64,000 nucleotides of DNA from a virus. Each line of letters starts with the position of its first letter. Position 1 is the first letter of the stretch. Shown here piece by piece: positions 7,759 through 62,947 of the stretch. The notes below the pieces were generated by a model. That model saw only the letters and a program-made list of their open reading frames with translations, did not search any database and had not been told where the DNA came from. Made by a program: the position numbers and the translations under genes. The stretch is taken from the IMG/VR virus record IMGVR_UViG_3300046542_000335, positions 1 through 64,000 of that record. The stretch is one strand, 5' to 3'.

Positions 7759-7795
7759 GACATCACCCGGTTTGCGCCGGGTGATGTCTTTATGC
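7759..7795 (+). terminator. Hairpin + TTTATGC
   Basis: GACATCACCCGG/CCGGGTGATGTC 12-bp stem then TTTATGC. Confidence 0.75.
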
Positions 7796-7815
7796 TGTCA
7801 ACGGAATCTTGGTTA

Positions 7816-7823
7816 TACATTAC
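7816..7823 (+). promoter_or_regulatory. Putative early (vRNAP) promoter core TACATTAC
   Basis: Recurrent intergenic motif, similar to phiKZ early consensus TATATTAC. Confidence 0.55.
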
Positions 7824-7860
7824 CGGCATGAGTCACCCCACCCATAGTTGGAGATGCGAA

Positions 7861-8325
7861 ATGTCGCAAGCAAAGAACTTCTATCCAATCGTCAATATCT
7901 TCAAAGCCCTTAGCGTGTTCGCTGAGCTGAAAGATCTCGGGATGCAAGGCAACGGTAAGCTCGAGACCGATCTCACCTTCCAGGCAGTCCCAGGGACCAC
8001 CGTGTACCACTTGAATGCCGATACGCAGAATGGCGTGAGTGGTTATCGCGTTCTGCTGAACGATCGTCCTCTGGAGCAAACTCCTGACACGGCGACTTCG
8101 GCTGAATCGATCATGAACCACATGGTCAATGAATACGAAGAAGCTCACAAAGGTAAGTTGCCTTTCGTGATGATGGTCAAGGATGCGAATGACGAGGTGC
8201 GACTCTTCCTCGACGGGTCTATCAGGATCAAGTCTGAGCGTGGTGAACAACTGGCTGAGATGGTTGATCGTCATCCGGACATGGTAACCCAGGCTCTTGA
8301 GAATATCCTGACCTCGGTCGTCTAA
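7861..8325 (+). CDS. Hypothetical protein, paralog of downstream gene
   Basis: GGAG SD; shares VKDxxxEVRLFxxG motif with 8448..9269. Confidence 0.7.
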   Translation: MSQAKNFYPIVNIFKALSVFAELKDLGMQGNGKLETDLTFQAVPGTTVYHLNADTQNGVSGYRVLLNDRPLEQTPDTATSAESIMNHMVNEYEEAHKGKLPFVMMVKDANDEVRLFLDGSIRIKSERGEQLAEMVDRHPDMVTQALENILTSVV

Positions 8326-8330
8326 ACGTT

Positions 8331-8350
8331 TTATGTAAAATTTTACATAA
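8331..8350. promoter_or_regulatory. Perfect 20-bp palindrome TTATGTAAAATTTTACATAA (GTAA-N4-TTAC family)
   Basis: Read directly from sequence; related motifs in other intergenic gaps. Confidence 0.55.
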
Positions 8351-8447
8351 CGTCGTAATCTCTTGACTTACCCCGCTTCTAGCGTTAGCTCCTGTGCCAC
8401 GAGCGCAGGAGCGTTCACTCTATATTCCTAGTCCGATGGAGGACAAC

Positions 8448-9269
8448 ATGGCACAAGCATTCACTATCAACAACTGGTTCCCTATCCTGGCTCTTCAAGG
8501 CTACGAGACCGCAATAGCGGCTATCCAGCAGAAAGGTGCTGAGATCTCCGAAGAAGGTGGAGTCGTTACCTTCAAGACGCGGGCAGGTGTCTACGTCATC
8601 ACTCCGTTTGCAAACGACGGACATATGGGCGTGAACCTCACCCTCAATGGTGAGGAGGTCATGAACATGCCGATCCCTCGCATCCTCTATGCTGAAGAGC
8701 GCATCGAGAACATCCTCGCCCTGGAAGAGATTTACGGTGAGCGGGCCGACCGTCTACGTGAAGCGCAGCCTGAAGGCTACAGCAACTTCTATCAGCAGTA
8801 CGATCCACTGACCTGGCTGGAAACCGCTGCCAAGATTCGTGAGTTCGGCGATATCGAGGCGGGCGAGACACTCACCATCCAAACCGCTGGCGACGGTAGC
8901 GATGTCGGTGTCTACACCCTCACCAAAGTCGTCACGGACGATAAGGCTGGTATCAACGTCACGCTAGACGGTGCACCCAAGTTCAACTACCCGCAACCGA
9001 TACTGCGTACGGCTGAGCAGATCGTTTCGGCTATCCTGAACCTGCGACGGAAGTTTGCTTTCGGCAATCAGTTCCAACACAACCCTGAAAACGCCAAGCC
9101 GCTGGTGGCTACCGTGAAAGATGGGCAGAATGAAATCCGACTGTTCAGCAACGGTACTATCACCATCACCGGTCCTGGTGTGATGAAGATCGTCACGATG
9201 GCAGATGCTGATGCAAGCAAAGCCAACGAGTTGATGGAACAGATCCTCGATCTGACCCTGAAGCACTAA
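8448..9269 (+). CDS. Hypothetical protein with internal domain duplication
   Basis: GGAGG SD; two copies of GVY...G(V/I)N(L/V)TLxG...AE.I. Confidence 0.75.
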   Translation: MAQAFTINNWFPILALQGYETAIAAIQQKGAEISEEGGVVTFKTRAGVYVITPFANDGHMGVNLTLNGEEVMNMPIPRILYAEERIENILALEEIYGERADRLREAQPEGYSNFYQQYDPLTWLETAAKIREFGDIEAGETLTIQTAGDGSDVGVYTLTKVVTDDKAGINVTLDGAPKFNYPQPILRTAEQIVSAILNLRRKFAFGNQFQHNPENAKPLVATVKDGQNEIRLFSNGTITITGPGVMKIVTMADADASKANELMEQILDLTLKH

Positions 9270-9271
9270 GC

Positions 9272-9320
9272 GACATAAGCACAGCAGGGGTGGTGGCCCC
9301 TGCTGTGTCTTTCTTTTTTG
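9272..9320 (+). terminator. Intrinsic terminator (TTTCTTTTTT class)
   Basis: CACAGCAGGGG/CCCCTGCTGTG stem + TCTTTCTTTTTT; minus strand reads hairpin+TTATGTC. Confidence 0.85.
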
Positions 9321-9470
9321 TGCTGCAAACCTTACCACCGCATCCCTTCCTCAGATCTCGTATACGCTGCGCTATCTATAAAGGTAAGGAAACGCCCGTA
9401 TGAATGGAGAACGTTCCTTATATAGCCAGCTAGAGCCCTTGTACCGTAAACGTGGCTATAAATACGATCC

Positions 9471-9494
9471 AAAGATTTTACAGTCATACATAGT
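9471..9494 (+). promoter_or_regulatory. Putative early promoter variant (ATTTTACAGTCA-TACATAGT)
   Basis: Matches upstream TTTACAG element plus a near-TACATTAY core. Confidence 0.45.
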
Positions 9495-9530
9495 AGACAT
9501 GAACAATCACACTGATCAAGGAATGCCGCT

Positions 9531-9716
9531 ATGAGCGCACTCAAAATTGTTGCTGGTTCTGTAGCTGTCGCTGGCGTGGCAGTCGTTGGTTACAAAGCAA
9601 TTCAGCGTTACCGCATGAAGCGTGCTGAGAAGAAGATGCACGAAGCGATCGATGCCTTTGCCGACGAGCTGGGTAAGATCTTCGACACGCCTGAATTCCG
9701 CAACGCCTGTAAGTAA
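9531..9716 (+). CDS. Small membrane-anchored protein (61 aa)
   Basis: AAGGA SD; N-terminal hydrophobic IVAGSVAVAGVAVVGY followed by basic residues. Confidence 0.75.
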   Translation: MSALKIVAGSVAVAGVAVVGYKAIQRYRMKRAEKKMHEAIDAFADELGKIFDTPEFRNACK

Positions 9717-9746
9717 CACCAACCCTAGTCCGAGGAGGACATTAAC

Positions 9747-9869
9747 ATGAACATCGTAAACATCATCATCAAGGTCGCCGTAGTTTGCATCGCCGCTGAC
9801 ATCATCTACGAGACCAACCAGAAGCACAACTTGACTGGCAAGATCAAAGCCAAGTTCAGCAAGAAGTAA
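9747..9869 (+). CDS. Small hydrophobic protein (40 aa, below ORF-track cutoff)
   Basis: GAGGAGG SD; MNIVNIIIKVAVVCIAADIIYETNQKHNLTGKIKAKFSKK. Confidence 0.7.
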   Translation: MNIVNIIIKVAVVCIAADIIYETNQKHNLTGKIKAKFSKK

Positions 9870-9939
9870 GTTGCACTGGTAAGTCGTAACACCCAAACCT
9901 CATTCGCAAGACCCAATTTAAAATATCTGGAGAATCACC

Positions 9940-10197
9940 ATGTCCGCAATCGAAATCGTTGGTACCGTAGTTGAAGCTGGTTCCGTAGTAGCTGATGCTG
10001 CTCAAGTCGCTGGTGAAGCTACCAAGCTGGGCGTAGCAACTGCTGCTGTCGCCAAGTACGCACAGACTGGCGCCAACATCGCCAAGTGCCACCCGGTGGC
10101 CGCAGCTGTCGTCGGTGCAGCCGCAGCAGCCGCAGCTGTCTACGGTAGCTACAAGATGTTCAAAGGTTTCACCAACAAGAAAGCGAAAGCTGCATAA
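9940..10197 (+). CDS. Ala/Val-rich small membrane protein (85 aa)
   Basis: GGAG SD; C-terminal PVAAAVVGAAAAAAAVYG hydrophobic helix plus Lys-rich tail. Confidence 0.75.
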   Translation: MSAIEIVGTVVEAGSVVADAAQVAGEATKLGVATAAVAKYAQTGANIAKCHPVAAAVVGAAAAAAAVYGSYKMFKGFTNKKAKAA

Positions 10198-10198
10198 A

Positions 10199-10240
10199 GG
10201 ACTGGGGAGCTTCGGCTCCCCTGCTCCACCTTTTCTTTTG
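10199..10240 (+). terminator. Intrinsic terminator, UUCG loop
   Basis: GGGGAGC-TTCG-GCTCCCC then TTTTCTTTT. Confidence 0.85.
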
Positions 10241-10283
10241 TCTTCATGCGGTGGTAAATCCTCAGGTAAAGGATTTTTAGCCC

Positions 10284-10291
10284 TACATTAT
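10284..10291 (+). promoter_or_regulatory. Putative early promoter core TACATTAT
   Basis: Preceded by ATTTTTAGCCC; recurrent motif. Confidence 0.6.
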
Positions 10292-10323
10292 CGAAGTGAA
10301 CAGTGGGGCTAGATACTTCATCT

Positions 10324-10860: not shown

Positions 10861-10881
10861 TCGGCGATCAACGCAAGTCAG

Positions 10882-10910
10882 GCCTGGGGTTCTCACCCCA
10901 GGCTTTATGC
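10882..10910 (+). terminator. Hairpin + TTTATGC
   Basis: GCCTGGGG/CCCCAGGC stem then TTTATGC. Confidence 0.7.
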
Positions 10911-10938
10911 CCTCAATTGAATAAGGTTAGTACCAGAT

Positions 10939-11772: not shown

Positions 11773-11790
11773 GCGTCATTTCGACATCCA

Positions 11791-11830
11791 CGCTGGGGGC
11801 CGCATCCCCTGGCGTGTCTTTTTCTTTTTG
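11791..11830 (+). terminator. Intrinsic terminator (TTTCTTTTT class)
   Basis: CGCTGGGGG/CCCCTGGCG stem then TCTTTTTCTTTTT. Confidence 0.75.
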
Positions 11831-11845
11831 TATTAGGAACGTCCC

Positions 11846-12277: not shown

Positions 12278-12992
12278 TGGCGGACTTCTCGCCCTGATGG
12301 AAATACATTGCAAGGACATGCGCAAGCAGTACGGCCATCTGCGAATCGATAAGCTGGCAGAAGACCAGCCTATTCCATTCCCTCATCGCCAGATGCCTAC
12401 GTTCTTTGTGCTACAGATTGCAACCAAGAAAGAACTCAAGATCTGGTTCCAGCTCGAGAAGACTCTGTTCGATCATTACGAGACCCCACTCGACATTCCG
12501 ACCTACATGGGTGTCCGACCACGCCAGATGGGGAAGGCTACTGAAGCTGGGAGACTGAGGACTCTGTTGGGATTAGACCTCGATGCCCACCGTATCCATC
12601 CCGTCCACGACACCCCGATACGTGCCGACTTGACAATAGACTGGACGGCACAATTGTACGCCAGGCGAACCCACCGCCCGTCAGTTGGTCCCGGCGGACA
12701 TGCGGATGATAAAGACATCAACATCATCGGCAAGTCTGGTCTACTCCTCGCCAACTCCGGTCTGTTCTTAGGGCTAGATCCAGGTATGGGTCGTTTCAGC
12801 CGGATGTTTACTGAGGAGCATAAACGCCGCTTCGACCTTTGGCCACGTAAGGTGGAGGAAGATGATCCACCCGAAGTCAAACACAGTACTGATTACAAAC
12901 GCTCGAAAGGGTGGAAGCGAATCCCGCTACAAATCCCCAATCAGGCCAAACCTTCAATCGTACTACTCGCACTACTCAGTCGTTCAGCATAA
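12258..12992 (+). CDS. Hypothetical protein
   Basis: AAGGAG upstream of ATG 12258; overlaps previous gene. Confidence 0.6.
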   Translation: MSQKELDGGLLALMEIHCKDMRKQYGHLRIDKLAEDQPIPFPHRQMPTFFVLQIATKKELKIWFQLEKTLFDHYETPLDIPTYMGVRPRQMGKATEAGRLRTLLGLDLDAHRIHPVHDTPIRADLTIDWTAQLYARRTHRPSVGPGGHADDKDINIIGKSGLLLANSGLFLGLDPGMGRFSRMFTEEHKRRFDLWPRKVEEDDPPEVKHSTDYKRSKGWKRIPLQIPNQAKPSIVLLALLSRSA

Positions 12993-12994
12993 GA

Positions 12995-13046
12995 GCATAG
13001 AGCCAGGGCGTAATGCCCTGGCTCTATGCATGTGTTCTTTTTTTTT
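12995..13046. terminator. Bidirectional terminator between convergent genes
   Basis: GCATAGAGCCAGGGC/GCCCTGGCTCTATGC stem; T-tract on + strand. Confidence 0.8.
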
Positions 13047-13055: not shown

Positions 13056-13373
13056 TCAGAACTTGCCTTGAATGGCAACCCCTGCACCGTACGGCAAAAC
13101 CAACTTCCCGACAACAGTCTGAATGTAGACCATCCCTGTCAATTTGATCACGAACACAGCGTGTCCAGTTTCCTGGATCTTGTACTGGTCGAAATCATTG
13201 GCGTACACCGGGATACGGCATTTGAGACCCATCACCGCGCGATAGACTTCCCGAAGCTCGGGAGATAGACTATCTTTGCTCAGTGTGATGAGTGCACTGC
13301 CGTACACCTTATAATTCTTGAGGTCTGCTTCCAGATCTCTTAACGCTGCATGTAACTGCTCGCATGCTGTCAT
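13056..13373 (-). CDS. Hypothetical protein (105 aa)
   Basis: ORF downstream of tail tube gene. Confidence 0.6.
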   Translation of the reverse strand: MTACEQLHAALRDLEADLKNYKVYGSALITLSKDSLSPELREVYRAVMGLKCRIPVYANDFDQYKIQETGHAVFVIKLTGMVYIQTVVGKLVLPYGAGVAIQGKF

Positions 13374-17425: not shown

Positions 17426-17428
17426 TCC

Positions 17429-24028: not shown

Positions 24029-24029
24029 C

Positions 24030-24068
24030 GGCATAGAGGCAGGGGCGGTAAACCCCTGCCTCTATGCT
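24030..24068. terminator. Bidirectional hairpin flanked by GCATA/TATGC
   Basis: GCATAGAGGCAGGGG/CCCCTGCCTCTATGC between convergent genes; no T-tract. Confidence 0.75.
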
Positions 24069-24073
24069 GCGCA

Positions 24074-24403
24074 TTACGCTGAACGACGGTTCAGGTTTTC
24101 GAGCTCAACGCCGATCACCAGCGTGTGGTCTTGGTGTTCCTGACCCCACGTTTCCAGCAAGCCGGTCTGGTAGTCAACCCGGACAACGAACGGACCAATG
24201 TCTGCGGTGTAGCCATTGGCTTCACGTTTGACCGGACCGCCCTTGAAGCCGATGTACGAGCTGTTGGCCTCTTCGCCAGCTGCATCGAGGACGCCCATGA
24301 TCTCGACATGCTTGATGCTGTCGGTGAAGCAAGGGTTGTCACCACCCAACAGGGCAATGAGGTTGGCCTTACCTTGCTTGAACGGAATCTTGTACTGATG
24401 CAT
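24074..24403 (-). CDS. Hypothetical protein (109 aa)
   Basis: TAATG coupling to upstream small ORF. Confidence 0.65.
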   Translation of the reverse strand: MHQYKIPFKQGKANLIALLGGDNPCFTDSIKHVEIMGVLDAAGEEANSSYIGFKGGPVKREANGYTADIGPFVVRVDYQTGLLETWGQEHQDHTLVIGVELENLNRRSA

Positions 24404-24567
24404 TACGCCACCGCCTTACAAACCATGACTGGAACCGGAATACCCAACTCAGCACAACGTTTCTCAAGAGCTTCTTGAGCTGCCTGGAACTGACGCACTT
24501 GTTGGAGGTGCCACTCACGAGGACGTGGCTTGATCTTGCTGCGATCGAGCTGACTAAGCCGGACCAT
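24403..24567 (-). CDS. Small hypothetical protein (54 aa, not in ORF track)
   Basis: MVRLSQLDRSKIKPRPREWHLQQVRQFQAAQEALEKRCAELGIPVPVMVCKAVA; TAATG overlaps at both ends. Confidence 0.65.
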   Translation of the reverse strand: MVRLSQLDRSKIKPRPREWHLQQVRQFQAAQEALEKRCAELGIPVPVMVCKAVA

Positions 24568-24908
24568 TAGACAGCAACCTCGTGTTCGATCTGGCTGAAC
24601 GCATCAACCTTCTTCTGGGTGACGTTCATGTACAGCTTGAGCAGATCACGCTCGATGTCGGCCAAGTCGCCAGGAACGCCTTCCAGAGCATCCAGACGGG
24701 CTTGGAACTCGACCATGTCCGCCAGGATCAGCTGTTGGTCGTAAGTGAACTGACCAACATGACCCAACGCCAGGTGGGATTCGTCGAACGCCTCTTTCGG
24801 AGACCAGGAGATGTGACCGTTGGAGTACTTGACGTTGTACCCAGCTTGACCGTCCTTTTCCTGTTCCCAGGCCATTACGATCTTACGACCTACGTAGTGT
24901 TGAGTCAT
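24567..24908 (-). CDS. Conserved small phage protein (GYxVxY...SWSPK domain plus helical crAss001_48-like domain)
   Basis: YVGRKIVMAW..GYNVKYSNGHISWSPKEAF motif. Confidence 0.6.
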   Translation of the reverse strand: MTQHYVGRKIVMAWEQEKDGQAGYNVKYSNGHISWSPKEAFDESHLALGHVGQFTYDQQLILADMVEFQARLDALEGVPGDLADIERDLLKLYMNVTQKKVDAFSQIEHEVAV

Positions 24909-24920
24909 GTTGCTATTCCC

Positions 24921-26180
24921 TTATTGGCGGTAGTGTTTCATAGTGAATGTGCGGAGGAGGATGTAAAGCAGTACTGCGTTGCGGACAGCTGCGATGAGAA
25001 CACCGTTCTTACTCTTCAGAGTCCGGCGGGCGATCCCTTCAGCCAGTTCGCGCATTTCGATGATCTGCGGATCTGCGGTACGACTGGCTTGATAGAGAGC
25101 ACGCATCTTCTTGAGCAACCCGCCGATGTCACTTTGGTTCTCCATCACGTTAGGATTTCGAGCCAGGTAATTGAAGGCGTGTTGCAATACGACCGTACAA
25201 AGCTGTTGAACGTCTTTGTCGGCACGAGGCGAGGAGTTGGCACTCATGTATTGCAAAGTCGCCTGCAACGAGCTCTTAGGCATCGTAGGGACGGTCTTGG
25301 CAATCACTTCGATGAGTTCAGGCACCATGAAGCTGTTCTTGTCCGGGAGCACTTCCAGGATGTAGCGCATATAGGTAGACACGAGTCGTGTTTTATCACG
25401 CACTTTCAACTCGCCATCCATCTCAATCATGGAGCTACTGGAACGGATCTGCATCTCAGGACTGTTCTTAACGACGGTGAAGACGTCCCGGATGTTCTTC
25501 AGGATATCCTTGATACGACCTTGAGTGTCGTTCACCATATATACAACTTTGTCGTCGTTAAGAAATGACAACAGTTCTTTATAGTGTAGCTCACCTTTAC
25601 CTACGACTGCTGCCGCACGAATGCGTAGCAGGGCACCCCAACTACCAGCCACCTTCAAACCAAAGCGTTTGTTGAGGGCTGCGTAGGTAGCCTGTGCGAT
25701 AATCGGGTCGGCGTTATAACGGAACCAATCGGTGAGGATGGAGGTGATGAACTTGTATTGCACAACCAGGATGGAAGCAAGCGCGCCTTCATAACGCTGC
25801 TGTTCATTCAGCAACGGACTGGTGAGGAAACGGTGAGCCATCCAGAAACAGCTGAGGTTCATTACGTCGCTGGATACATGGCGGTGAGGTAGGATAGCAG
25901 GCAGGGCGTGGAGATCATCCTCCAGCGAGTCCTCATCGGCATCCATGACTTCGTTGAACCAGCGGTTGCGATCCTCGTCCTTAAAGCGGACAGGGTGGAC
26001 GCCCATGAGGTTTCCGCCGAAGAACGCGATGTGTGTGTCGTTCTTGTTTACGAACTGCTGCTCGTAGACTTTTACCTTTGTCAGAAACTTCACGTCAAAA
26101 ATGATGTGAGAACAGTGTTTCTCAAAGGTACTGTTGACGCAAGGCGAATCGGCCTTTACAGACGGCAAGACGTTGCTCAT
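24921..26180 (-). CDS. Conserved jumbo-phage protein (phiKZ gp32-like)
   Basis: 419 aa, FFGGNLMGV motif and LLYILLR C-terminus; synteny with terminase block. Confidence 0.6.
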   Translation of the reverse strand: MSNVLPSVKADSPCVNSTFEKHCSHIIFDVKFLTKVKVYEQQFVNKNDTHIAFFGGNLMGVHPVRFKDEDRNRWFNEVMDADEDSLEDDLHALPAILPHRHVSSDVMNLSCFWMAHRFLTSPLLNEQQRYEGALASILVVQYKFITSILTDWFRYNADPIIAQATYAALNKRFGLKVAGSWGALLRIRAAAVVGKGELHYKELLSFLNDDKVVYMVNDTQGRIKDILKNIRDVFTVVKNSPEMQIRSSSSMIEMDGELKVRDKTRLVSTYMRYILEVLPDKNSFMVPELIEVIAKTVPTMPKSSLQATLQYMSANSSPRADKDVQQLCTVVLQHAFNYLARNPNVMENQSDIGGLLKKMRALYQASRTADPQIIEMRELAEGIARRTLKSKNGVLIAAVRNAVLLYILLRTFTMKHYRQ

Positions 26181-26218
26181 GAGTACCTCAATAAATCGAT
26201 TGAAATTAATTATGACAG

Positions 26219-26226
26219 TACATTAC
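26219..26226 (+). promoter_or_regulatory. Putative early promoter core TACATTAC
   Basis: AT-rich upstream, divergent intergenic region. Confidence 0.55.
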
Positions 26227-26248
26227 TGCCATGATCAGGAGAAGAAAG

Positions 26249-26452: not shown

Positions 26453-26920
26453 ATGCATCAGACTCAAGTAGCCCAACGAAGCGCGTTCGCTCACGTCCTT
26501 GAACACCACACTCTGGATTATCTCATGTGCGATAACGAACTGAGCCAGCGACTGGTCTCAATGAACGAAGAAGTTGAAGTCCCGCGCACTGTCGTTGGGA
26601 TGTCCTACCCACCGACCAAACGTTGGTCGTCTACCGAGACTTGCCTGGAGTATCTCCGCATTCTCGCCTACGTTCCAGATCACCACTACGAACTGGAAAT
26701 GGAAAGCGCCACCTTCCCACTCATGATGCTCCAGGTTCATGAGAACTATCGTCCTGAGCTCTCCCTGGATGAGTTCCACGACGAAGTATCGACCAAGGCT
26801 GGCGTCATCAAGCTGTTGGTCTTCCTGACCGGTGAAGAGTATCCTGCGAAGCCGTTCTCCTGGGAAGGGTTGTTCTGGGATATCCAGCCAATCGATCAGT
26901 TCCAAGCCATCCAACAATGA
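26453..26920 (+). CDS. Hypothetical protein
   Basis: GGAGG SD. Confidence 0.7.
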   Translation: MHQTQVAQRSAFAHVLEHHTLDYLMCDNELSQRLVSMNEEVEVPRTVVGMSYPPTKRWSSTETCLEYLRILAYVPDHHYELEMESATFPLMMLQVHENYRPELSLDEFHDEVSTKAGVIKLLVFLTGEEYPAKPFSWEGLFWDIQPIDQFQAIQQ

Positions 26921-26956
26921 CATAAAGGCGGGGGTGAAAGCTCCTGCCTTTATGCT
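26919..26956. terminator. Hairpin flanked by GACATAAA/TTTATGC
   Basis: CATAAAGGCGGGGG-TGAAAG-CTCCTGCCTTTATG. Confidence 0.65.
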
Positions 26957-27112
26957 GCGTCCTCTTCGGCTCAGTTCGCTGGGCGTGGTCGAAGTAAACC
27001 ATCACCATGCCTGACGGCAAGGGAGCGTGTAATGAAACGTCAATTCCATGGCCACCCGCAACGGCCTAACAATCAGCAACAAACCCCACAGTCCACTCAA
27101 GAGAAACCCGCC

Positions 27113-27529: not shown

Positions 27530-27538
27530 GGAGCCGAC

Positions 27539-28307: not shown

Positions 28308-28380
28308 TGTAAATAATGACACCGTTGGCTAGATAGTATGTTTCACCTCTTTTCATGCTGGAGAAGGCGAGGAAGGGGGT

Positions 28381-42978: not shown

Positions 42979-43022
42979 GAGCGGAGGGGGCAACCCCTCC
43001 GTCTCTATTTTTTATTTATGTC
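42979..43022 (+). terminator. Hairpin after chmA
   Basis: CGGAGGGG-GCAA-CCCCTCCG then TATTTTTTATTTATG. Confidence 0.7.
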
Positions 43023-45158: not shown

Positions 45159-45200
45159 GGACTGGGGAGCTTCGGCTCCCCTGACCCCTTTCTTTTTTTG
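45159..45200 (+). terminator. Intrinsic terminator, 25-bp identical to 10199..10223
   Basis: GGACTGGGGAGCTTCGGCTCCCCTG then CTTTCTTTTTTT. Confidence 0.85.
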
Positions 45201-45238
45201 TCATAATAGGATGTATTCAACGACTGAGGTAGATTCCT

Positions 45239-45664
45239 ATGTCTACGAGCATCCTAGGTCTGGGCAAGGAAGGAGTCATCTCTGATATTGACATCAAGAT
45301 CGACTACCTGATGTGCACTTTCTTCTTCGCAAAACACAGCCAATCGACCCTGTACCGTAACAGCATCACTTCCCTGGCCAAGATCATCCAACTCTACGGA
45401 GACGATGACCTGACCATTCCGGGAGAGATCCAAACGGAACTACAGAAGTTCCTGGCCAAATTCTTCTCCTCCGCTCAAGTGACAGTCGACGTCGAGAACG
45501 ATGGCGATGATCCAGGCATCAACCTGAAAATTGAAGCGGTGGTGACAGATAGCACGCCTTCGGGTACCGTTAGCACAAGCATCGGTTACTCGTTGACGAC
45601 TCGAGACTCCGCACTCAAGTCGATCGTGAACGTTAGTAATGGCACCATTGTATACACCTCGTAA
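45239..45664 (+). CDS. Conserved protein, possible gp25/GpW-like baseplate fold
   Basis: GAGG SD; helix followed by VTVDV..INLKIEAVV strands. Confidence 0.5.
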   Translation: MSTSILGLGKEGVISDIDIKIDYLMCTFFFAKHSQSTLYRNSITSLAKIIQLYGDDDLTIPGEIQTELQKFLAKFFSSAQVTVDVENDGDDPGINLKIEAVVTDSTPSGTVSTSIGYSLTTRDSALKSIVNVSNGTIVYTS

Positions 45665-45693
45665 CCCAAAACCCCGCCTATTAAGGAAGTAAC

Positions 45694-46290
45694 ATGTCTC
45701 AAGTAGAAACCGCAGCACCGATCGCCTTCCCATCGACCACCGAAGAACTGCGTGCCTTCGTTGCCGGGACCATGACCGAAGTGCTGAACATCCCTGAAAA
45801 CAAGGCCATCCAGGCTGAATCCCTGCTGGGCTTCCTGCTGGGCCTGGTTCAGGAACGTCGTGCCAAAGACGACCGTGCCCAGTTCCGTCCGGTGGTTGTA
45901 TCCACCTACTACCGCGGCGCTGCTCGTGCCACCTGCGGCGTGAAGGAAGGCGAGTTCTTCGTCCAGTTCGAAGAAGAAGCCAAGGACGCCGATGGCAAGC
46001 TGGTTCTGGAAGCGCACGACGTCAATGGCGTGTCGATGACCCGTCCGGTCTGGAAAGCCATGCCGCTGGAAGCCGGTCCCCTGGAAATGCTGACCAAGCT
46101 GGTTCTGTCCCAGCCAGTACAGCCAGGCCAGGTCTTCTACGTTACCACCGCAGCTGGCATCGAAGCGCACATGGAAGCCATGACCGACATGTTCCAGGCT
46201 ACCGACGCCACGCGCACCAAGCTGGACGGCGCCAGCAAAGAAGAACTGTTGGCCTCGGGTGAAGCGCAAGCCTTCGCCGAAGCTCAGTAA
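45694..46290 (+). CDS. Hypothetical protein (198 aa)
   Basis: AAGGA SD; strong codon bias. Confidence 0.75.
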   Translation: MSQVETAAPIAFPSTTEELRAFVAGTMTEVLNIPENKAIQAESLLGFLLGLVQERRAKDDRAQFRPVVVSTYYRGAARATCGVKEGEFFVQFEEEAKDADGKLVLEAHDVNGVSMTRPVWKAMPLEAGPLEMLTKLVLSQPVQPGQVFYVTTAAGIEAHMEAMTDMFQATDATRTKLDGASKEELLASGEAQAFAEAQ

Positions 46291-46350
46291 TTCGGCCGTA
46301 ACAATCACAGCTGGAGGGTGAAAACCCTCCAGCTTGACAAGGATTTTTTT

Positions 46351-46995
46351 ATGACGCCTCAAGATCAAGCCAACCACACCTACCATGAAATCGTACGTCG
46401 GGGCCTGGAAGGCTTCGACAGTGCGGTAGAAGCCATCAACGCCGGTAGCTCTGCTCGTGTGCGTAACGTGCGGGAGAAGTACTTCCAGGCTGTCATACTG
46501 CCTATTCTCCGCAAGCGTGTGCGTAACGAAGTCTGCGAAGACCTGGGCGTCTGGTTGAACACGGCTGATGGCCTGCACAACCCGATGAACATCGTGGACG
46601 ATTCCGGCGCCCTGCTGTTTGTCTGCCCACCTGCCTTCATCGACCAGCAGCTTAACACAAAGCCGCCTGAGGGCCGTTTCACTACAACCCACCACGTAGT
46701 GCAGCAGCAAGCCGATATGATCGCCAACGGCGACATGCGCGGTATCATGGCTATCGAGGAAGGTATCTTTGAGGCCCACAAACCTCAGACCGAAATGCAT
46801 CATCGCGCTGATGCGATTATGTTGTTGGTAGATATTTACAAGTTCTACCAGATACCTATGGAAGAACTGCTCGGACCTCAAGCCAACGAGATCCTGGCAT
46901 TGGCCAACAAGCGCGATTCCACGAAAGTCGCTTTGCCCACCCCGCAACAAGAAGAGATCCATGACGAACCCTCAGACGATGACCTCATCTACTGA
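46351..46995 (+). CDS. Conserved hypothetical protein
   Basis: AAGGA SD; IVDDSGALLFVCPP motif; acidic tail. Confidence 0.7.
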   Translation: MTPQDQANHTYHEIVRRGLEGFDSAVEAINAGSSARVRNVREKYFQAVILPILRKRVRNEVCEDLGVWLNTADGLHNPMNIVDDSGALLFVCPPAFIDQQLNTKPPEGRFTTTHHVVQQQADMIANGDMRGIMAIEEGIFEAHKPQTEMHHRADAIMLLVDIYKFYQIPMEELLGPQANEILALANKRDSTKVALPTPQQEEIHDEPSDDDLIY

Positions 46996-50073: not shown

Positions 50074-50174
50074 CGGATATAGCCAGTAAACCAAGGTATC
50101 TCGGACTAAGGTACAGGTCCCTCTGGGGCCTGTATCGAGGAATTTATGCCGTTCATGATAAAACTTTACAATGC

Positions 50175-50182
50175 TACATTAT
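50175..50182 (+). promoter_or_regulatory. Putative early promoter core TACATTAT
   Basis: AAAACTTTACAATGC-TACATTAT. Confidence 0.6.
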
Positions 50183-50211
50183 ACTAGTGACCACTCACCT
50201 AGGAGTCCGTG

Positions 50212-54680: not shown

Positions 54681-54728
54681 GCATAAATAGAGGAGGGGTC
54701 AAACCCTCCTCTATCCTTTTCTTTTTTG
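54681..54728. terminator. Bidirectional terminator: TTTTCTTTTTT on +, TTTATGCC on -
   Basis: ATAGAGGAGGG/CCCTCCTCTAT stem between convergent genes. Confidence 0.85.
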
Positions 54729-54730
54729 TA

Positions 54731-55066
54731 CTAGATACGGGTGCGATAGACTTGTTTGAGCTGACCGAGAAACTGCTGATCTGGGATCAATAGTTTGGTG
54801 GTGTGTTCGTCGAAGTCCTGCGGACCGTTGAGGTCATTGAGACGAATAATGACCAAGTGGTCCTCAATGGCTACTTTTTGATCGAGTAAGAACGATGTCA
54901 GGTCGTAACGGAACAGGTATCCCGTTTCCACTGGTATCGTCAAGAGGGTTGTGGACCGGTCATTCCTGATCGATGGAATGATGGACTCTACGAACGCTTT
55001 GTATTCGTCCGAGAGCACAAAGGCTGCCGGGACTGAGATCATTGCGTTATCTAGACTACTGGCCAT
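54731..55066 (-). CDS. Small protein, T4 gp53/LysM-like baseplate wedge candidate
   Basis: AAGGAG SD; FRYDL..L...VIIRLNDL..P.......LLIP pattern. Confidence 0.55.
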   Translation of the reverse strand: MASSLDNAMISVPAAFVLSDEYKAFVESIIPSIRNDRSTTLLTIPVETGYLFRYDLTSFLLDQKVAIEDHLVIIRLNDLNGPQDFDEHTTKLLIPDQQFLGQLKQVYRTRI

Positions 55067-55090
55067 GAATACTCCTTTAAATTGCAGACA

Positions 55091-55098
55091 TACATTAT
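55091..55098 (+). promoter_or_regulatory. Putative early promoter core TACATTAT
   Basis: AAATTGCAGACA-TACATTAT. Confidence 0.6.
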
Positions 55099-55135
55099 CA
55101 GATTGAACCTCATTCACTGAAAGCAGTAGGAGCTA

Positions 55136-57313
55136 GTGATGGATTTGCCACCAGAGTTGCCGCATAACGAAATCCCGATCGAAATGGTCCCCGTGAGCGG
55201 CTCTAACCCCTACTTCCCCTACGTGTCCGCAGCACGACAGGTGATGTACACCGGTAACCGCACTCAAGAATTGTCCGTGGTAGGACGCACGCGTAAACGC
55301 CAACGGTCTGCGCTTGAGAAAGAACTGGCCAAAGCCACCTTCCGCCATCAGTTCGATGTGGATGCGACGGTATTGGCTGTAATCCCACGATTTAAGAACG
55401 ACGGTATCCACGGCGATTTCAAGATCAATCCGCTGGATGTCGTAATCTTCGAGAACTACGAGAGTGGTCAGCTGGATGTACTTGAGCTGTCCAAATTTCA
55501 TGTAATGCACCAGCACTACGGTTTCCGCTTTGCGGAGAACGAAGACGCGATGGATAAGTTGCGCAACACCAATAAGCCAAACTTCGAGGCTGGTACGGTG
55601 TTGATGCGCAGTCCTAACGTCACCGACGACGGCGACTACATGCCTGGGCTGGAAACCAACGTGATCCTGATCACCGATCCGGCGGTAACGGAGGATGCGC
55701 TGGTATATAGCGAATCCTACGCCCAGCGTATCCGGACGACTGGTTACGAAAGTCGGACGTTTGGCTTTGGTCGGACTCATTATCCGATCAACTCCTACGG
55801 CACCACCACGGAATGCAAGATCTTGCCAGATGTAGGCGATAAGATCCATTCCAACGGTCTGCTGTGCGCCATGCGTCCATACGATCCGATTCTGGATGCC
55901 GTATACATGTCGGCGAAGAAGTTGCTGAAACCCGTTTACGGGATGGATACGCCGGTGTATGGCGTACCTGATGCGGTGGTAGTTGACATCCGTGTGGTGC
56001 GTAACGAATCGGTACGTGATCGCCGACTGCCAGAAGAGTTGGTGAAACAGCTCGACCGGTACTACCAGGCTGACAAGCGGTATTACAAGGAAATCATCAA
56101 GACTGCACTGAAACGTTCGGGCAAATACATGACCGCCCGTCCGAATCTGTCGATGCGTTTGAATGCGCTGCTGTACGAAGCTTTCGCATTCGTGGGCAAA
56201 GACCTGCTGGACGATGACCTGTGGCCGTACGACAACTCCGCTGCCCTGGAAGTGAATCGCCGCTACCGTGGTGAAACACTCGACGAGTATCGGGTTGAAG
56301 TTACGTACGAATACCTGGCTCAGGTAAAGGAAGGCTCCAAAGGTACCGGCATGCACGGTAACAAAGGGGTATCCGGTGAAGTACGTCCTGATGCTGACAT
56401 GCCAATCGATGAGAACGGCAACCGCGCTGAAGTCATGGCGCTGTGTACCTCTGTCGGTAACCGGATGAACCCTGGGTTGATCCATGAGCAGTATGTGGGT
56501 GCCGCCGGGCGGGACGTGATCAAACGTATCCGTCGAGCATTCGGCATGCCAGACATGGGCGTCATTCGCATGGATGACATCAACGACGCGGTGTTCGATG
56601 ATCGCAACGCAGCCTTGGCTGACGAGCAGTTCGAGTACCTGATGGGTTGGTACAAGATCGTAGCGCCGAACGAGAACTTCAAGGCGTTGAGCAAACCACA
56701 CGTCAGGAGCACTGACCGTTGGTTGCGTCACTTGGCCCAAGTCATCAAAGATGGCGACGAGCCATGGGGCACTTACTTCAACCTGCCATCCACTTCCGGC
56801 GTCCGTATGGACAAGGTGCTGGAACAGCTGGAAACTGGTCCATACGCTCCAGAGATCACTCGGGTTACTTACCGGGATCACGGCGGCAACATGGTCACCA
56901 CCAAAGAACCTATCCTGATCGGGCCGAACTACTACCTGATCCTGGAAAAGACTGCGACCGACTGGTCGGGTGTAAGTTCCTCCAAGACCAGCCACTTCGG
57001 TACCACTGCCCGTCTCACCAACGCGGACAAGTACTCGTCGCCTGGCCGTCAGACCGTAACCCGGTCTATGGACGAATCGACCGTACGGAACATGGCTCAT
57101 GCAATGGGGGCGGAAATCATCGCCGACATCATGGACCTGAACAACAACCCAACCGCACACAAAGAGGTTTGCTACAACATCCTCACGGCTGAACAGCCAA
57201 CGAACATCGAACGCGTCATCGATCGAGAGAAGTTCAAGCTCGGTGGTCACCGCCCATTGGCGTTTGCGATCCACCAGTTGATCGTTTCCGGCAAGAACAT
57301 CTCCCGCGACTAA
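55136..57313 (+). CDS. nvRNAP beta-like subunit (phiKZ gp71-73-like), uninterrupted
   Basis: SAARQVM, TEDA, GSKGTGMHGNKG, NRMNPG, DESTVR motifs. Confidence 0.92.
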   Translation: MMDLPPELPHNEIPIEMVPVSGSNPYFPYVSAARQVMYTGNRTQELSVVGRTRKRQRSALEKELAKATFRHQFDVDATVLAVIPRFKNDGIHGDFKINPLDVVIFENYESGQLDVLELSKFHVMHQHYGFRFAENEDAMDKLRNTNKPNFEAGTVLMRSPNVTDDGDYMPGLETNVILITDPAVTEDALVYSESYAQRIRTTGYESRTFGFGRTHYPINSYGTTTECKILPDVGDKIHSNGLLCAMRPYDPILDAVYMSAKKLLKPVYGMDTPVYGVPDAVVVDIRVVRNESVRDRRLPEELVKQLDRYYQADKRYYKEIIKTALKRSGKYMTARPNLSMRLNALLYEAFAFVGKDLLDDDLWPYDNSAALEVNRRYRGETLDEYRVEVTYEYLAQVKEGSKGTGMHGNKGVSGEVRPDADMPIDENGNRAEVMALCTSVGNRMNPGLIHEQYVGAAGRDVIKRIRRAFGMPDMGVIRMDDINDAVFDDRNAALADEQFEYLMGWYKIVAPNENFKALSKPHVRSTDRWLRHLAQVIKDGDEPWGTYFNLPSTSGVRMDKVLEQLETGPYAPEITRVTYRDHGGNMVTTKEPILIGPNYYLILEKTATDWSGVSSSKTSHFGTTARLTNADKYSSPGRQTVTRSMDESTVRNMAHAMGAEIIADIMDLNNNPTAHKEVCYNILTAEQPTNIERVIDREKFKLGGHRPLAFAIHQLIVSGKNISRD

Positions 57314-57344
57314 GCGGGAGTACCATTCACCAAGGAGTTATCGA

Positions 57345-59312
57345 ATGCGTCAGTTCCATGTACGTCATTTCTTCGAGACACCACGCTCGCAGTGGAAATG
57401 CGAATACAACGAACGTTTCATGCTGGAGTTCGATGATGGTACCAACGAGGTTGTAACGACTGCTCGGATGGAGGTCAGTAAAATGCTCTGGCTTCCGCAC
57501 GAGCAGTACACCCAACTTCCGCTACTCAGTCGCCACGTTATCCCGAAAGGATCTCTCCCTAACAAGAAGATCCAGGATCTCCTGTCAGCGGTTGCCCGCG
57601 ACATGCAGGAAATCTACGGTACGGGTAACTACAACCGTGAAGAGCTTTGGTACTGGATCTACAAGGCTGAAGAACGTTTGTTCAACACCGCGATCGTGGA
57701 CTATTCCGAATACGTTCGGAGTGTGAACTCCATCCACTATCTGCGGCTCTACAACCACCCACCGATCAAAGAGGCGCGTGAGGGCATCAAGAAGAACGAT
57801 GCTTCCATTGCGAAAGGTCAGAAGTTGCTGGAGGAAATCCTCCTCAACGACATGTCGATCAGTCGGAACCCGGTAGTCAGTGACTTGCGCTGCGGGATCA
57901 TGAAGATGGAGCAGTTGCTCCAGATCATCGGCGTACGGGGTGCAAACACCGACATCGATGACTTCATCTATAAGACGCCTATCATGGGCAACTACTTTGC
58001 GGGTATCCATGACCCAGCAGAAGCCATGATGGAATCGACGCTGGCCGGTAAGTCCATCATCTTTACGGGCGCTCCGTTGGAACAGACGGAATACGCCAAC
58101 CGTAAGTTGCAGTTCACCTCGCAGCGGGTGGATCTGTTGGTGATGGGCGACTGTGGCAGTACGTACCTGTCGGAGATCGAAGTCACGAACGAGCGGTTCA
58201 AGTCCATGTTGGGCTTGTACTTCCGTGACCCGATGCATGGCCGCATGCGACCGCTACAACAGTCCGACAAGAAGTTGATCGACCAGAAGCTGGAATTCCG
58301 GATCGCATTCAACTGCCGTCATCGTCACATGAGCTGCGTTTGCTCGGTGTGTTATGGCGACCTGGCGTACAACGTTCCTTACGGGGCCAACATCGGTCAC
58401 ATCGCGTCCACCAAGACGCAGTCCGAGGTATCCCAACGGGTACTGAAGGTTAAGCACTCGGAATCCTCCACGGTATCCGAAGCGATCACCATCAACGCTG
58501 ATGAGCGGGAATTCATCCTTCCCGGTAAAGAACTCAATCAGATCACCCTCAACCCACGTCTGAAGGAGAAGGGAATCAAGATGCTCCTGCGTAGCACGCC
58601 AAAGAATCGTGCAGCGAACGCATCGAAACTCCCGATCCTCAAGAAGGCGGATGTCCAAGAAGGCATGTCGGCGGCGAAGCATTCCCAATTCCGGGATGTC
58701 ACCTTCGAGGTTCCTTCCACTACCAAGCGTCCAATGCGTTTCCACGTATCGGTCAGCCGTGGTGCACGGATGTCCTACCTGACCAATGAATTCCTGCGTT
58801 GGTTCTTGAAGAAAGGGTTCAGTATCCAGGACGATGCGATGTATCACATCGACTTGAGTGACTGGGACTTCACCAAGCCGGTCTTTGAACTGCCGAACAA
58901 ACACGTCAGCATGAAGGACTTCGCAGCCGAAGTTGAAGTGTTTATCCGGTCCACCCACGATGACTCATCCCGCCACTTGGGACAACTCCGTCAGCTCCGG
59001 CAGTACACGGACCCAGTGGAAGCGCTCCTGGATCTGCATTCGTTGATTCAGCCAAAGGTACATGTTCACTTTACACATTTGGCAGTTGTTATGTTGGCGC
59101 TTATGGTGCCTGCCGTCGGTACTGGGCATTACAAAATCCCAGAGGTAGGTCAGCCTATCCGCTTCGCTAAATACGACGAGGTCATCAACGGTGGCTCTCT
59201 GGGTGCGTTGTTTGCATACCAGGGTGGTGCTGAACAGCTGACCAAAGTTGGACAGTACTTGAACACTGATCGGCCTCAGCATCTGCTCGATCCACTGATT
59301 CTGCCGCTGTAG
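57345..59312 (+). CDS. nvRNAP beta'-like subunit, C-terminal part (phiKZ gp74-like)
   Basis: EYANRKLQ, GDCGS, C..VCSVCYG Zn site, SQRVLKVKH trigger-loop-like motif. Confidence 0.9.
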   Translation: MRQFHVRHFFETPRSQWKCEYNERFMLEFDDGTNEVVTTARMEVSKMLWLPHEQYTQLPLLSRHVIPKGSLPNKKIQDLLSAVARDMQEIYGTGNYNREELWYWIYKAEERLFNTAIVDYSEYVRSVNSIHYLRLYNHPPIKEAREGIKKNDASIAKGQKLLEEILLNDMSISRNPVVSDLRCGIMKMEQLLQIIGVRGANTDIDDFIYKTPIMGNYFAGIHDPAEAMMESTLAGKSIIFTGAPLEQTEYANRKLQFTSQRVDLLVMGDCGSTYLSEIEVTNERFKSMLGLYFRDPMHGRMRPLQQSDKKLIDQKLEFRIAFNCRHRHMSCVCSVCYGDLAYNVPYGANIGHIASTKTQSEVSQRVLKVKHSESSTVSEAITINADEREFILPGKELNQITLNPRLKEKGIKMLLRSTPKNRAANASKLPILKKADVQEGMSAAKHSQFRDVTFEVPSTTKRPMRFHVSVSRGARMSYLTNEFLRWFLKKGFSIQDDAMYHIDLSDWDFTKPVFELPNKHVSMKDFAAEVEVFIRSTHDDSSRHLGQLRQLRQYTDPVEALLDLHSLIQPKVHVHFTHLAVVMLALMVPAVGTGHYKIPEVGQPIRFAKYDEVINGGSLGALFAYQGGAEQLTKVGQYLNTDRPQHLLDPLILPL

Positions 59313-60913: not shown

Positions 60914-60920
60914 CGCAAGG

Positions 60921-60950
60921 GCCGGAGGTGATTCTCCGGCTTTATGCCCC
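60921..60950 (+). terminator. Hairpin + TTTATGC
   Basis: GCCGGAG/CTCCGGC stem then TTTATGCC. Confidence 0.65.
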
Positions 60951-60972
60951 ATCCTGCAAAAGGAATCAATAC

Positions 60973-61350
60973 ATGACTAACTTAATCCTGCGTCTTTATA
61001 AAGAAATCCCTAACGTCGACGAACCTGCTGAAGAGCGGGTGGAAGTCAACCTCCAAGGAGGTAGCCAAGAGATCGGTAAAGGTCTTGGGTATCTGGTCGG
61101 CTATGCCGAGGGTATGCTGACCTTCCTGACCGAACCCGGTGATTACGTTCCGATCGAGGTCGAGAACTATGACGCCCTCGACGAGTACGAGAAAATGCGT
61201 GCCCGTGAACTGATCGTACTGATGAAGAACTTCTACACCGGTCCGGATGTTGAGAAGCTCTCTCCGTTGAATATCCACATGAAACTTGAACTAGACGGAT
61301 CTCCACCACGGGTGTTGATCTACGCTATCCAAGACAGCAATAAGGACTAA
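60973..61350 (+). CDS. Hypothetical protein
   Basis: AAGGA SD. Confidence 0.7.
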   Translation: MTNLILRLYKEIPNVDEPAEERVEVNLQGGSQEIGKGLGYLVGYAEGMLTFLTEPGDYVPIEVENYDALDEYEKMRARELIVLMKNFYTGPDVEKLSPLNIHMKLELDGSPPRVLIYAIQDSNKD

Positions 61351-61354
61351 CGTC

Positions 61355-61963
61355 ATGTCCACTGAACCAGTACGCGATATGGCACTTGAGAAGTACCTGA
61401 ACAAGTGTGACCTCACCTTGACCGGATACATCCATCAATTCCGTCGCGACGCAGTTGAGTTCTCAGACCAACGGCAATACCTTGAGATGGCAGCTTGGGC
61501 GCTGAATCTCTTCCAGTCTTCAACCGATCTAGAGAAGCGTGCGCTACTCAACGTCACTAAAACGACTGGCGGTCTGGTGAGTTTACGTTCCACCTACCGC
61601 TTTACAGACACAGAGGTGAGCGAACCCTTCGCTACCCTGGAGTTTGATCCACGTCCTACCACGATGGTACGCACCTTTAGCGATATGGGGCGCCCACACG
61701 CTCTCTCAGACGCGTTGATTGATCGCAGTCATCTGAGCCTGACTTACCTACTACGACCCGTACGTAACCTCGTAAGAGGTCTGCGTGGTAAAGGTTGGAA
61801 AGTCTACGCGGACGCAATAGCCGGTGACAAGGTTATCACTGGCCTAACTGACGGTAGTGTTGCTCTGTACGTCATCGTCGATCTAGCACAACTCGAAGCC
61901 GATACCGCTGCCATCAAGGAATTCCACGCCAACAAGGAAACCTCCGATGAGCGAAGTGATTGA
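61355..61963 (+). CDS. Hypothetical protein (202 aa)
   Basis: AAGGA SD. Confidence 0.7.
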   Translation: MSTEPVRDMALEKYLNKCDLTLTGYIHQFRRDAVEFSDQRQYLEMAAWALNLFQSSTDLEKRALLNVTKTTGGLVSLRSTYRFTDTEVSEPFATLEFDPRPTTMVRTFSDMGRPHALSDALIDRSHLSLTYLLRPVRNLVRGLRGKGWKVYADAIAGDKVITGLTDGSVALYVIVDLAQLEADTAAIKEFHANKETSDERSD

Positions 61964-62273
61964 TTCCGATGGATTCATCATCGTCAATCTAGAAGAAGGG
62001 GAGAGTTTCGAAGTACTCATCGAAGTAGCCAAGAAACACCCCAACCGTCAAGTGGCCGTCTCCATCGGCAAGCGGATCACCGCTGAAACGCTGATGAAGG
62101 CGGCTGCTGAACACATGCCTCCACGCACAGAGGACTTGAACGACCTCCTGATGTTTCAGACGTCCAGCCGAGTCAAAGCTACTAACGACTTCTGGATTCG
62201 TGGCGAAAGTCGCGATCCTACCCGCACCACCTCAGGCCTCCCATATCGGAGAGGCAAAGGTAGATCCCGTTAA
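61947..62273 (+). CDS. Hypothetical protein (108 aa)
   Basis: AAGGA SD, overlaps previous gene. Confidence 0.65.
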   Translation: MSEVIDSDGFIIVNLEEGESFEVLIEVAKKHPNRQVAVSIGKRITAETLMKAAAEHMPPRTEDLNDLLMFQTSSRVKATNDFWIRGESRDPTRTTSGLPYRRGKGRSR

Positions 62274-62296
62274 TCATTCCGTCTAAGGAACGCATC

Positions 62297-62896
62297 ATGG
62301 CCCGTGAAGTATTACAACGCATTGTCGTTAACGATCGTCCAACTGTATTTCGACTAGCCGCCGCTGACATCTATCGTCCTGAGCGCAATAAGAAGCGTCT
62401 CGCCGGACGCGTCGACCCAACTCAAGTGGCGGTCACCCGGTTCCACTACCTGTTCGCCAAGTATGGACCTGTGGTAGTTGCCAAGAATCACCTCGGCGTC
62501 GATCTAAGGATCACTACCATTGAGGACCTGGAAGCAAATCCTCAATGGCTTGAAAACAATGCACACTTTCGCAGTGCGAGAGTGAAACCACAGACCCTAA
62601 AAACCAAAGGTGGTTACGTCGGCAGTAACATCGTCCTACTGGTCAATAAAGACGGTCCTATATTCATGGGAGCGGCCGCTGACTACATGACCGACTTCAT
62701 GGGGGCGTTCTTCTACGTCCACGACCACTTCCCAGGTGCGACAGAGGCCAATCTTCGCGATCCTAACATGTGGGCTATGTGGTTGGGTATGTTTACAGTA
62801 GGTTTCGCGAAAACTGGTCCAACCCTGGTGTTTGAGATGCGTGACCATATCCAGAGTCTTGATAAGACCATGGCTTCTTGGTACCCACGACGTTAA
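62297..62896 (+). CDS. Protein resembling an internal segment of nvRNAP beta subunit (phiKZ gp123-like fragment)
   Basis: HYLFAKYG, GAFFYVHDHFP, W..WLG, HIQSLD motifs in order; similarity recalled, not searched. Confidence 0.5.
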   Translation: MAREVLQRIVVNDRPTVFRLAAADIYRPERNKKRLAGRVDPTQVAVTRFHYLFAKYGPVVVAKNHLGVDLRITTIEDLEANPQWLENNAHFRSARVKPQTLKTKGGYVGSNIVLLVNKDGPIFMGAAADYMTDFMGAFFYVHDHFPGATEANLRDPNMWAMWLGMFTVGFAKTGPTLVFEMRDHIQSLDKTMASWYPRR

Positions 62897-62898
62897 CA

Positions 62899-62947
62899 GC
62901 ATACAGCCAGGGCTTCCATGCCCTGGCTGTATGCCTTTCTTTTTTTT
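62899..62947. terminator. Bidirectional terminator
   Basis: GCATACAGCCAGGGC/GCCCTGGCTGTATGC then CTTTCTTTTTTTT. Confidence 0.85.

Follow-up and report, generated by a model that had tools for sequence, protein, structure and literature searches.

Two classes of hairpin tail at gene ends of a nucleus-forming jumbo phage, and their plausible correspondence to its two RNA polymerases

How the non-canonical RNA polymerases (RNAPs) of phiKZ-like phages terminate transcription is an open question, and the terminator motif published for phiKZ, which has no U-tract, is unexplained. The question is posed in a particular form by a 64,000-nucleotide (nt) stretch of viral DNA (positions 1 to 64,000 of IMG/VR record IMGVR_UViG_3300046542_000335; here termed the window), part of a 74.7-kb contig of 54% GC, in which hairpins between genes carry one of two 3' tails: a T-tract with an internal C (class A) or a TATG box (class B). 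The first-pass annotation of this stretch had described both tails and matched them to two phage enzymes, the virion RNA polymerase (vRNAP) and the non-virion RNA polymerase (nvRNAP). All of the hairpins that it cited are present, to within a few bases; in the window class A lies on the plus strand, at the ends of units that begin with early-type promoters, class B lies on both strands, and both classes are conserved among relatives. From this arrangement, an assignment of enzymes to terminators appears plausible, and we give slightly better than an even chance to the proposal that class A ends vRNAP early units and class B ends nvRNAP units, the latter through pausing of the nvRNAP at TATG.

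The window encodes chimallin, the nuclear-shell protein (40975-42954; profile phrog_4795), a DNA polymerase, the terminase and virion proteins, together with four split RNA-polymerase subunits (profiles phrog_3148, 2987, 3295 and 3015). Homologs of phiKZ gp178 (vRNAP; 16-3183), gp55 (nvRNAP; 43038-44528) and gp71-74 (nvRNAP; 55139-59312) were located by tblastn. Since it combines chimallin with split multisubunit vRNAP and nvRNAP genes, the phage is, on its gene content, one of the Chimalliviridae (phiKZ-like, nucleus-forming jumbo phages) and encodes both polymerases. Kinship to cultured phages is, as judged by sequence comparison, only distant, and megablast of 13 kb of the window against a phage collection returned no match. 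A terminase search gave 54 related loci; comparisons drew on a complete 267-kb relative, G001, that is syntenic with the window and about 86% identical in DNA, and on a second complete genome, G003 (terminase identity 62%, 51% GC). Minus-strand open reading frames (ORFs) of the window were judged by substitution phase against G001, which identified real minus-strand genes at 13056-13232, 24074-26180, 29928-30767, 39549-40625, 54731-55066 and from 62949 onward.

The eight early-type promoter sites of the window constitute one strong 40-nt family that is present on the plus strand only (8:0), with the consensus AAA-N-TT-N-ACAG-N-C-N-TACATTA-N5-RTGA, and matches to the corresponding position weight matrix (PWM) are distributed 27:0 (plus:minus) in G001 and 25:0 in G003. 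As would be anticipated for phiKZ-like early promoters, the motif is long and AT-rich, runs in one direction and stands upstream of both chimallin (site 6, 40759-40797, TACATTA core at 40779) and the nvRNAP gp71-74 homologs (site 8, 55071-55109, core 55091); early genes of phiKZ are unidirectional (PMC8244752). The remaining sites lie at 7796-7834 (site 1, core 7816, PWM score 31.3), 9467-9505 (site 2, core 9487, with an ortholog in G001), 10264-10302 (site 3, core 10284), 26199-26237 (site 4, core 26219), 29869-29907 (site 5, core 29889) and 50155-50193 (site 7, core 50175). Site 5 is antisense to the real minus-strand gene at 29928-30767 (phrog_3179; substitution phase 23/9/81), which has its own TATG 30 nt upstream. 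That each early-type promoter is followed by a class A hairpin before the next, as had been claimed, is borne out in the window (p = 0.002), and in G001 a T-tract hairpin separates every early promoter from its successor, an arrangement matched by 0/200,000 permutations; the alternation extends to G003.

Class A consists of a GC hairpin, a gap of 0-6 nt and then YTTC-T7-8-GT. Its nine representatives in the window are plus-strand hairpins with folding free energies (dG) of -14 to -32, followed by T(1-4)C-T(4-9) and mostly terminated by GT. Three are plus-strand sites (11789-11832, tail 11817-11831; 28267-28308, tail 28296-28308; 45164-45201, tail 45189-45201). Four carry the class A tail on the plus strand and a TATG box on the minus strand: 9266-9321 (hairpin 9279-9308, tail 9310-9321, TTATG on minus); 10192-10241 (hairpin 10204-10221, tail 10231-10241, TTTATGC on minus at 10198-10192); 12983-13046 (palindromic GCATA...TATGC hairpin 12995-13029, tail 13035-13046, class B on minus), which is convergent with the minus-strand gene 13056-13232; and 54681-54729 (hairpin 54687-54714, tail 54717-54729), which is convergent with the gene 54731-55066 and where a single stem was correctly described as bearing tail A on the early strand and tail B, here TTTATGC, on the other. 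Two are composites, at 36144-36195 (hairpin 36150-36177, TTTGTGC and then a class A tail at 36185-36195, i.e. class A plus a class B variant) and at the convergent junction 62888-62949 (palindromic hairpin 62899-62934, TATGC plus a class A tail at 62936-62949, with class B on the minus strand); composites of TATGC and a T-tract account for 9/24 class A sites in G001.

Like canonical Rho-independent terminators, class A pairs a stable GC hairpin with a nearby U-rich tract, and the sites are detected by a consensus terminator scan; unlike canonical terminators, they have the fixed form YTTC-T7-8-GT, often stand 4-6 nt off the stem and occupy one strand only. The T-runs that follow the internal C are bimodal in length (5 versus 7-8), and every C-T(6 or more) site has an upstream fold of about -14 to -38 kcal/mol, mostly at a spacing of 0-6 nt. 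The strand bias is evident from the motifs alone, plus:minus counts in G001, G003 and the window contig being, respectively, 22:0, 20:0 and 7:0 for TCTTTTTT and 29:0, 42:0 and 11:0 for T7. To the nine sites listed in the first-pass annotation must be added a T-tract-type hairpin at 42981-43020, within the unit 40779->45190, that has T6-ATT-TATG as its tail, separates chimallin from the nvRNAP gp55 homolog and is conserved in G001. The idea that class A might be an upstream element of promoters was rejected, as only about 5/25 class A sites have another early promoter following within 60 nt.

Class B comprises a GC hairpin with TATG-CYGT placed 2 nt behind it and no U-tract, so that the whole element reads hairpin-TTATGCYGT. 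Seven plus-strand hairpin sides in the window (boxes at 3217, 7789, 10904, 24063, 26950, 50143 and 60941) and five minus-strand sides (at about 9277, 12999/12991, 24035, 54687 and 62903) are followed by (TT)TATG(C/T). Folds of -14 kcal/mol or better precede 17 of the 31 occurrences of TATGC[CT], and 8 of the 10 occurrences of the class A motif TTTCTTTT, as against 12.7% of random 46-mers. The spacing of GC run, 2 nt and TATG was found in 34/81 hairpin-linked sites, and hairpin-linked TATGs have T at -2 in 74%, C at +4 in 70% and Y at +5 in 86% of cases, then G/C, T and T. Class B closes the vRNAP gp178 homolog (3191-3225, hairpin then TATGT) and the terminase (24029-24069, a palindromic hairpin with class B on both strands at a convergent junction) on the plus strand, and it is found, as had been asserted, both at late gene ends such as that of the terminase and inside early units: at 10877-10913 in unit 10284->11820, at 26918-26957 (both strands) in unit 26219->28295 and at 60918-60950 in unit 55091->62936. 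Further plus-strand sites lie at 7757-7797 (hairpin then TTTATGCTGT) and, just upstream of early promoter 7, at 50110-50150 (hairpin, 6-nt spacer, TTTATGCC). The description of class B as a tail of the form (TT)TATGY holds for hairpin-linked sites and needs two amendments: at palindromic sites TATG(C) does not hang free but pairs with GCATA to form the stem base, and TGTG variants (TTTGTGC) also occur, at 31881 (31858-31888, hairpin then TTTGTGCC, the same variant being present in G001) and at 36176. No family was assigned to the hairpins by an Rfam search.

Class B is the terminator element already published for phiKZ. ONT-cappable-seq of phiKZ identified 133 termination regions, 61 with a hairpin and YTTATKYYGT (PMC10914365), and 201phi2-1 has a matching terminator motif and an additional one by which the stem is extended (PMC11512511). 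As in class B, motif A/B of 201phi2-1 (PMC11512511) and the elements of phiKZ (Putzeys et al. 2024, PMC10914365) place a pyrimidine/purine GC hairpin directly before TTAT(G/T)YYGT at gene 3' ends and may, between convergent genes, be bidirectional. Unlike phiKZ, the genome studied here is 54% GC, and its TATG box consequently stands out from the background. In the published phiKZ and 201phi2-1 work time points were pooled and a single intrinsic-terminator family was described, with no link to either polymerase; an assignment of terminator types to the two polymerases was not found in the phiKZ and 201phi2-1 papers, a review, an AR9 study or further literature searches. A division of these terminators into one class for early units and another marked by TATG would constitute a new, testable form of polymerase-specific termination.

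The two classes differ in their strand distribution across whole genomes. A tally of motifs 3' of hairpins was run in G001 and G003, and both the class split and the strand bias hold: among strong intergenic hairpins of G001, T-tract tails number 32 on plus and 0 on minus, and hairpins with a class B tail only (B-only) 34 and 29 (Fisher 6e-7), with corresponding ratios of 27:3 and 35:35 in G003 (p = 1e-4). Strong hairpins inside G001 genes carry neither tail on 68/68 sides. The contig has seven minus-strand units, of which class B closes five and class A none. A TATG stands 27-36 nt ahead of the start codon in four of the seven, and a search with the PWM family found no early promoter on any of them. 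In the G001 junction table, which derives from a crude gene caller with strand calls corrected in the window only and so retains some noise, the minus tail is class B at 19/21 convergent junctions, as against class B at 10/69 tandem plus junctions.

These junctions bear directly on whether TATG here marks an end or a beginning, since the four bases are those of the phiKZ late promoter (Yakunina et al. 2015, PMC4666361), which are also the bases accommodated in the gp123 pocket (PMC12809450). Class B might be an ordinary hairpin terminator joined to a late promoter, whose TATG would restart the nvRNAP for the following gene without contributing to termination. The exact identity with the nvRNAP late-promoter core favours such a restart, as do the class B TATGs that lie 14-88 nt before the next start codon at tandem junctions, five of 29 class B TATGs falling in the promoter-typical window of 25-36 nt. 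However, convergent junctions offer no gene to promote and yet 19/21 have the minus-strand box, and the CATA and TATG that flank the terminase hairpin never vary (26/26 relatives), in keeping with the earlier contention that TATG at convergent junctions signals termination. Intergenic TATGs without a hairpin, in contrast, have no flanking consensus and peak sharply 28-34 nt before start codons (16/44 lie in the 25-36 nt window), and so behave like phiKZ late promoters; hairpin-linked TATGs show no favoured distance to the next start codon and, unlike the phiKZ late promoter, combine a hairpin at a fixed 2-nt spacing with a downstream CYGT(T) consensus, which the hairpin-less TATGs lack, at gene ends that include convergent junctions. 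No hairpin is found at the model phiKZ late promoter P119L, and TGTG variants persist at orthologous class B sites. From the contrast in flanks and spacing, the phage is taken to have true TATG promoters and, as a distinct entity, a hairpin-TATG element, and a pure restart function for the latter is improbable.

TATG is also scarce beyond these elements. Among depleted tetranucleotides TATG/CATA ranks second (observed/expected 0.55), and in the whole contig, G001 and G003 its frequency within genes, in either orientation, is about 2.2-fold below codon-shuffled expectation, its density between genes being about 4-fold higher; this pattern fits selection against stray nvRNAP signals. At individual sites the box can change between close relatives, from TATG to TGTG or the reverse, to TCTG or to nothing, with the hairpin retained, as at window 26950 / G001 159179 (where the G001 ortholog reads TTGTGC), 28561-28591 / G001 160782 and 8388-8412 / G001 139954; some class B sites must therefore be dispensable or tolerant of TGTG.

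Over longer distances both classes are conserved. In an alignment of the terminase-downstream hairpin from 26 relatives, with terminase identities of 35-96%, no columns are invariant except C, CATA and TATG, whilst the inner stem covaries (paired cells 94% versus 79% in shuffles; doubly changed 56 versus 27.5 +/- 3.7). Some 8.7 kb upstream of the terminase (window 12995-13046) lies a junction at which 30 distinct relatives have a T-tract on the plus side; the minus side mostly has TATGCCG, and in none of them a T-tract. The most distant group has class A in the form TTC-T6-7-CTTT, retaining the internal C. One IMG/VR contig (L042, terminase identity 35%) has a class A-type T-tract at 3162-3191 on the minus strand relative to the terminase, and in this case the one-strand rule may track early genes rather than a fixed strand.

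Such conservation also bears on the proposal that the hairpins merely stabilise or define processed RNA 3' ends, with incidental tails. The 3' ends obtained by ONT-cappable-seq cannot by themselves separate termination from trimming back to a stable hairpin, which leaves room for this idea, but the conserved boxes lie 3' of the hairpin and would be lost from a trimmed RNA, and they are strand-specific, with a sequence that stays constant as the stems covary. We regard this explanation as very improbable.

Applying the same analysis to the phiKZ genome gave ratios (early strand to opposite strand) of 31:6 for T-rich tails and 41:52 for class B (p = 9e-6), a pattern that is less clean owing to the AT-rich background. 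The phiKZ major capsid gene ends in hairpin-TTTATGTTGT, with an early promoter directly after it. The early unit gp121-gp125, which includes gp123, has a class B site inside and ends at a convergent junction where the plus-strand tail is TATG with T9 and the minus-strand tail is TTTATGCC, a layout that mirrors the window unit 55091->60941->62936. A search for a phiKZ nvRNAP gene with a B-only hairpin between it and its early promoter gave none, gp71 having its own variant promoter. This variant (NC_004629, about 63040-63075), with the core TATATCAT instead of TATATTAC, precedes the small gene before gp71 and is missed by exact-core scans.

A mechanism can be postulated that would accommodate these arrangements. 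Class A would end vRNAP transcripts begun at TACATTA-type promoters by ordinary hairpin/U-tract termination, and class B would end nvRNAP units, comprising late and structural genes and every minus-strand unit. In phiKZ the nvRNAP late promoter is TATG, with G as +1 (PMC4666361), and gp123 binds TATG on the non-template strand (PMC12809450), a pocket in this beta-like nvRNAP subunit reading the four bases at promoters. We propose that TATG entering the transcription bubble about 6 nt past a GC stem would be caught by the same pocket, causing the nvRNAP to pause, and that the hairpin and the weak UUAU hybrid would then free the RNA from the paused enzyme. Lacking TATG read-out, the vRNAP would need a U-tract, and it would mostly pass class B sites inside early units, because class A still closes the units that contain class B, an arrangement with no purpose unless a U-tract-dependent enzyme got that far; composite sites of TATGC and a T-tract would stop both enzymes. 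That the nvRNAP reuses its TATG pocket as a pause and termination sensor, to which the vRNAP, obeying only U-tracts, is blind, and that this forms a polymerase-specific terminator code across the whole family, is a broader and more tentative suggestion that may well prove incorrect.

Several observations weigh against this assignment. Counted per gene, B-only hairpins are about threefold scarcer in early units than elsewhere, but counted per kb they are not (9/34 in 29% of G001), and so they are perhaps not transparent to the vRNAP. About 9/32 T-tract hairpins of G001 do not lie directly behind a recognised early promoter. The nvRNAP gp55-homolog gene sits behind the T-tract hairpin 42981-43020 with no early promoter of its own, and some T-tract hairpins must therefore leak for the vRNAP; this hairpin may be an attenuator setting the chimallin-to-polymerase ratio. 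TATG is avoided equally in early, other plus-strand and minus-strand genes (observed/expected 0.42-0.46), and its depletion accordingly does not discriminate between the enzymes. In phiKZ the share of T-rich tails on the minus strand (6/37) equals the minus share of genes, so that the counts by themselves give no evidence of strand exclusion in that phage. Finally, host RNAP too is stopped in vivo by such terminators from 201phi2-1 (PMC11512511). Of the correspondence between tails and polymerases suggested in the first-pass annotation, the strand distribution, the alternation with promoters and the architecture of minus-strand ends stand, but T-tract hairpins cannot all be absolute stops for the vRNAP.

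Some of these same points would be expected if the classes differed simply in strength, class A being a strong universal terminator that insulates early units and class B a weaker, leaky stop for any polymerase. A hairpin with a U-tract is known to terminate all multisubunit RNAPs that have been studied, which suits this explanation, as do the scarcity of B-only sites per gene in early units, the T-tract hairpin inside an early unit ahead of an nvRNAP gene and the obedience of host RNAP to the 201phi2-1 terminators. A universal strong stop would, however, be expected on the minus strand too, particularly at convergent junctions, yet class A accounts for 0/29 on that strand in G001; T7 is absent from the minus strand of all three genomes, and the asymmetry between class A and class B is kept at an orthologous site across deep divergence. 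A difference in strength is accordingly a rather unlikely account of the two classes. The rival explanations are weakened by the convergent-junction data, the fixed spacing and the lack of class A on the minus strand, and polymerase-specific termination, with class A for the vRNAP and class B for the nvRNAP, remains the reading that we slightly favour.

Viral termination signals that are read by one machinery or at one stage have precedents in the poxvirus early signal TTTTTNT and the class I and II terminators of T7; these involve unrelated enzymes and factors, and the poxvirus signal has no hairpin, the RNA being read by a capping-enzyme factor. For the phiKZ-like phages, the arrangement described here yields a testable family-wide rule, namely that U-tract hairpins occur only at early-unit ends and TATG-box hairpins elsewhere. 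The rule ties in with the recently solved TATG pocket of gp123, and it can be tested with reagents in hand, i.e. purified nvRNAP, the P119L template and existing phiKZ RNA-seq and ONT data. If true, it would explain how early and late programmes run on one strand without cross-talk, provide annotation rules for the early units of uncultured jumbo phages, and supply orthogonal terminators for synthetic circuits that use these polymerases.

Some minus-strand ORFs of the window proved to be shadows. Those at 27002-28060(-) and 45586-46962(-) were rejected as genes, since substitutions relative to G001 hit the third positions of the plus-strand ORFs beneath them (27032-27529, 27539-28252, 45239-45664, 45694-46290 and 46318-46995). 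The ORF at 9516-9896(-) is likely also a shadow; its substitution phase is ambiguous, and the region is covered by small plus-strand ORFs (9531-9716, 9747-9869 and 9940-10197). Lastly, a 199-amino-acid protein encoded at 62297-62896 matches the gp123-type 'polymerase' profile phrog_2943 over positions 158-332 of 535 only, in the middle of the profile (E 8e-17), and is a stand-alone fragment of the TATG-reading subunit.

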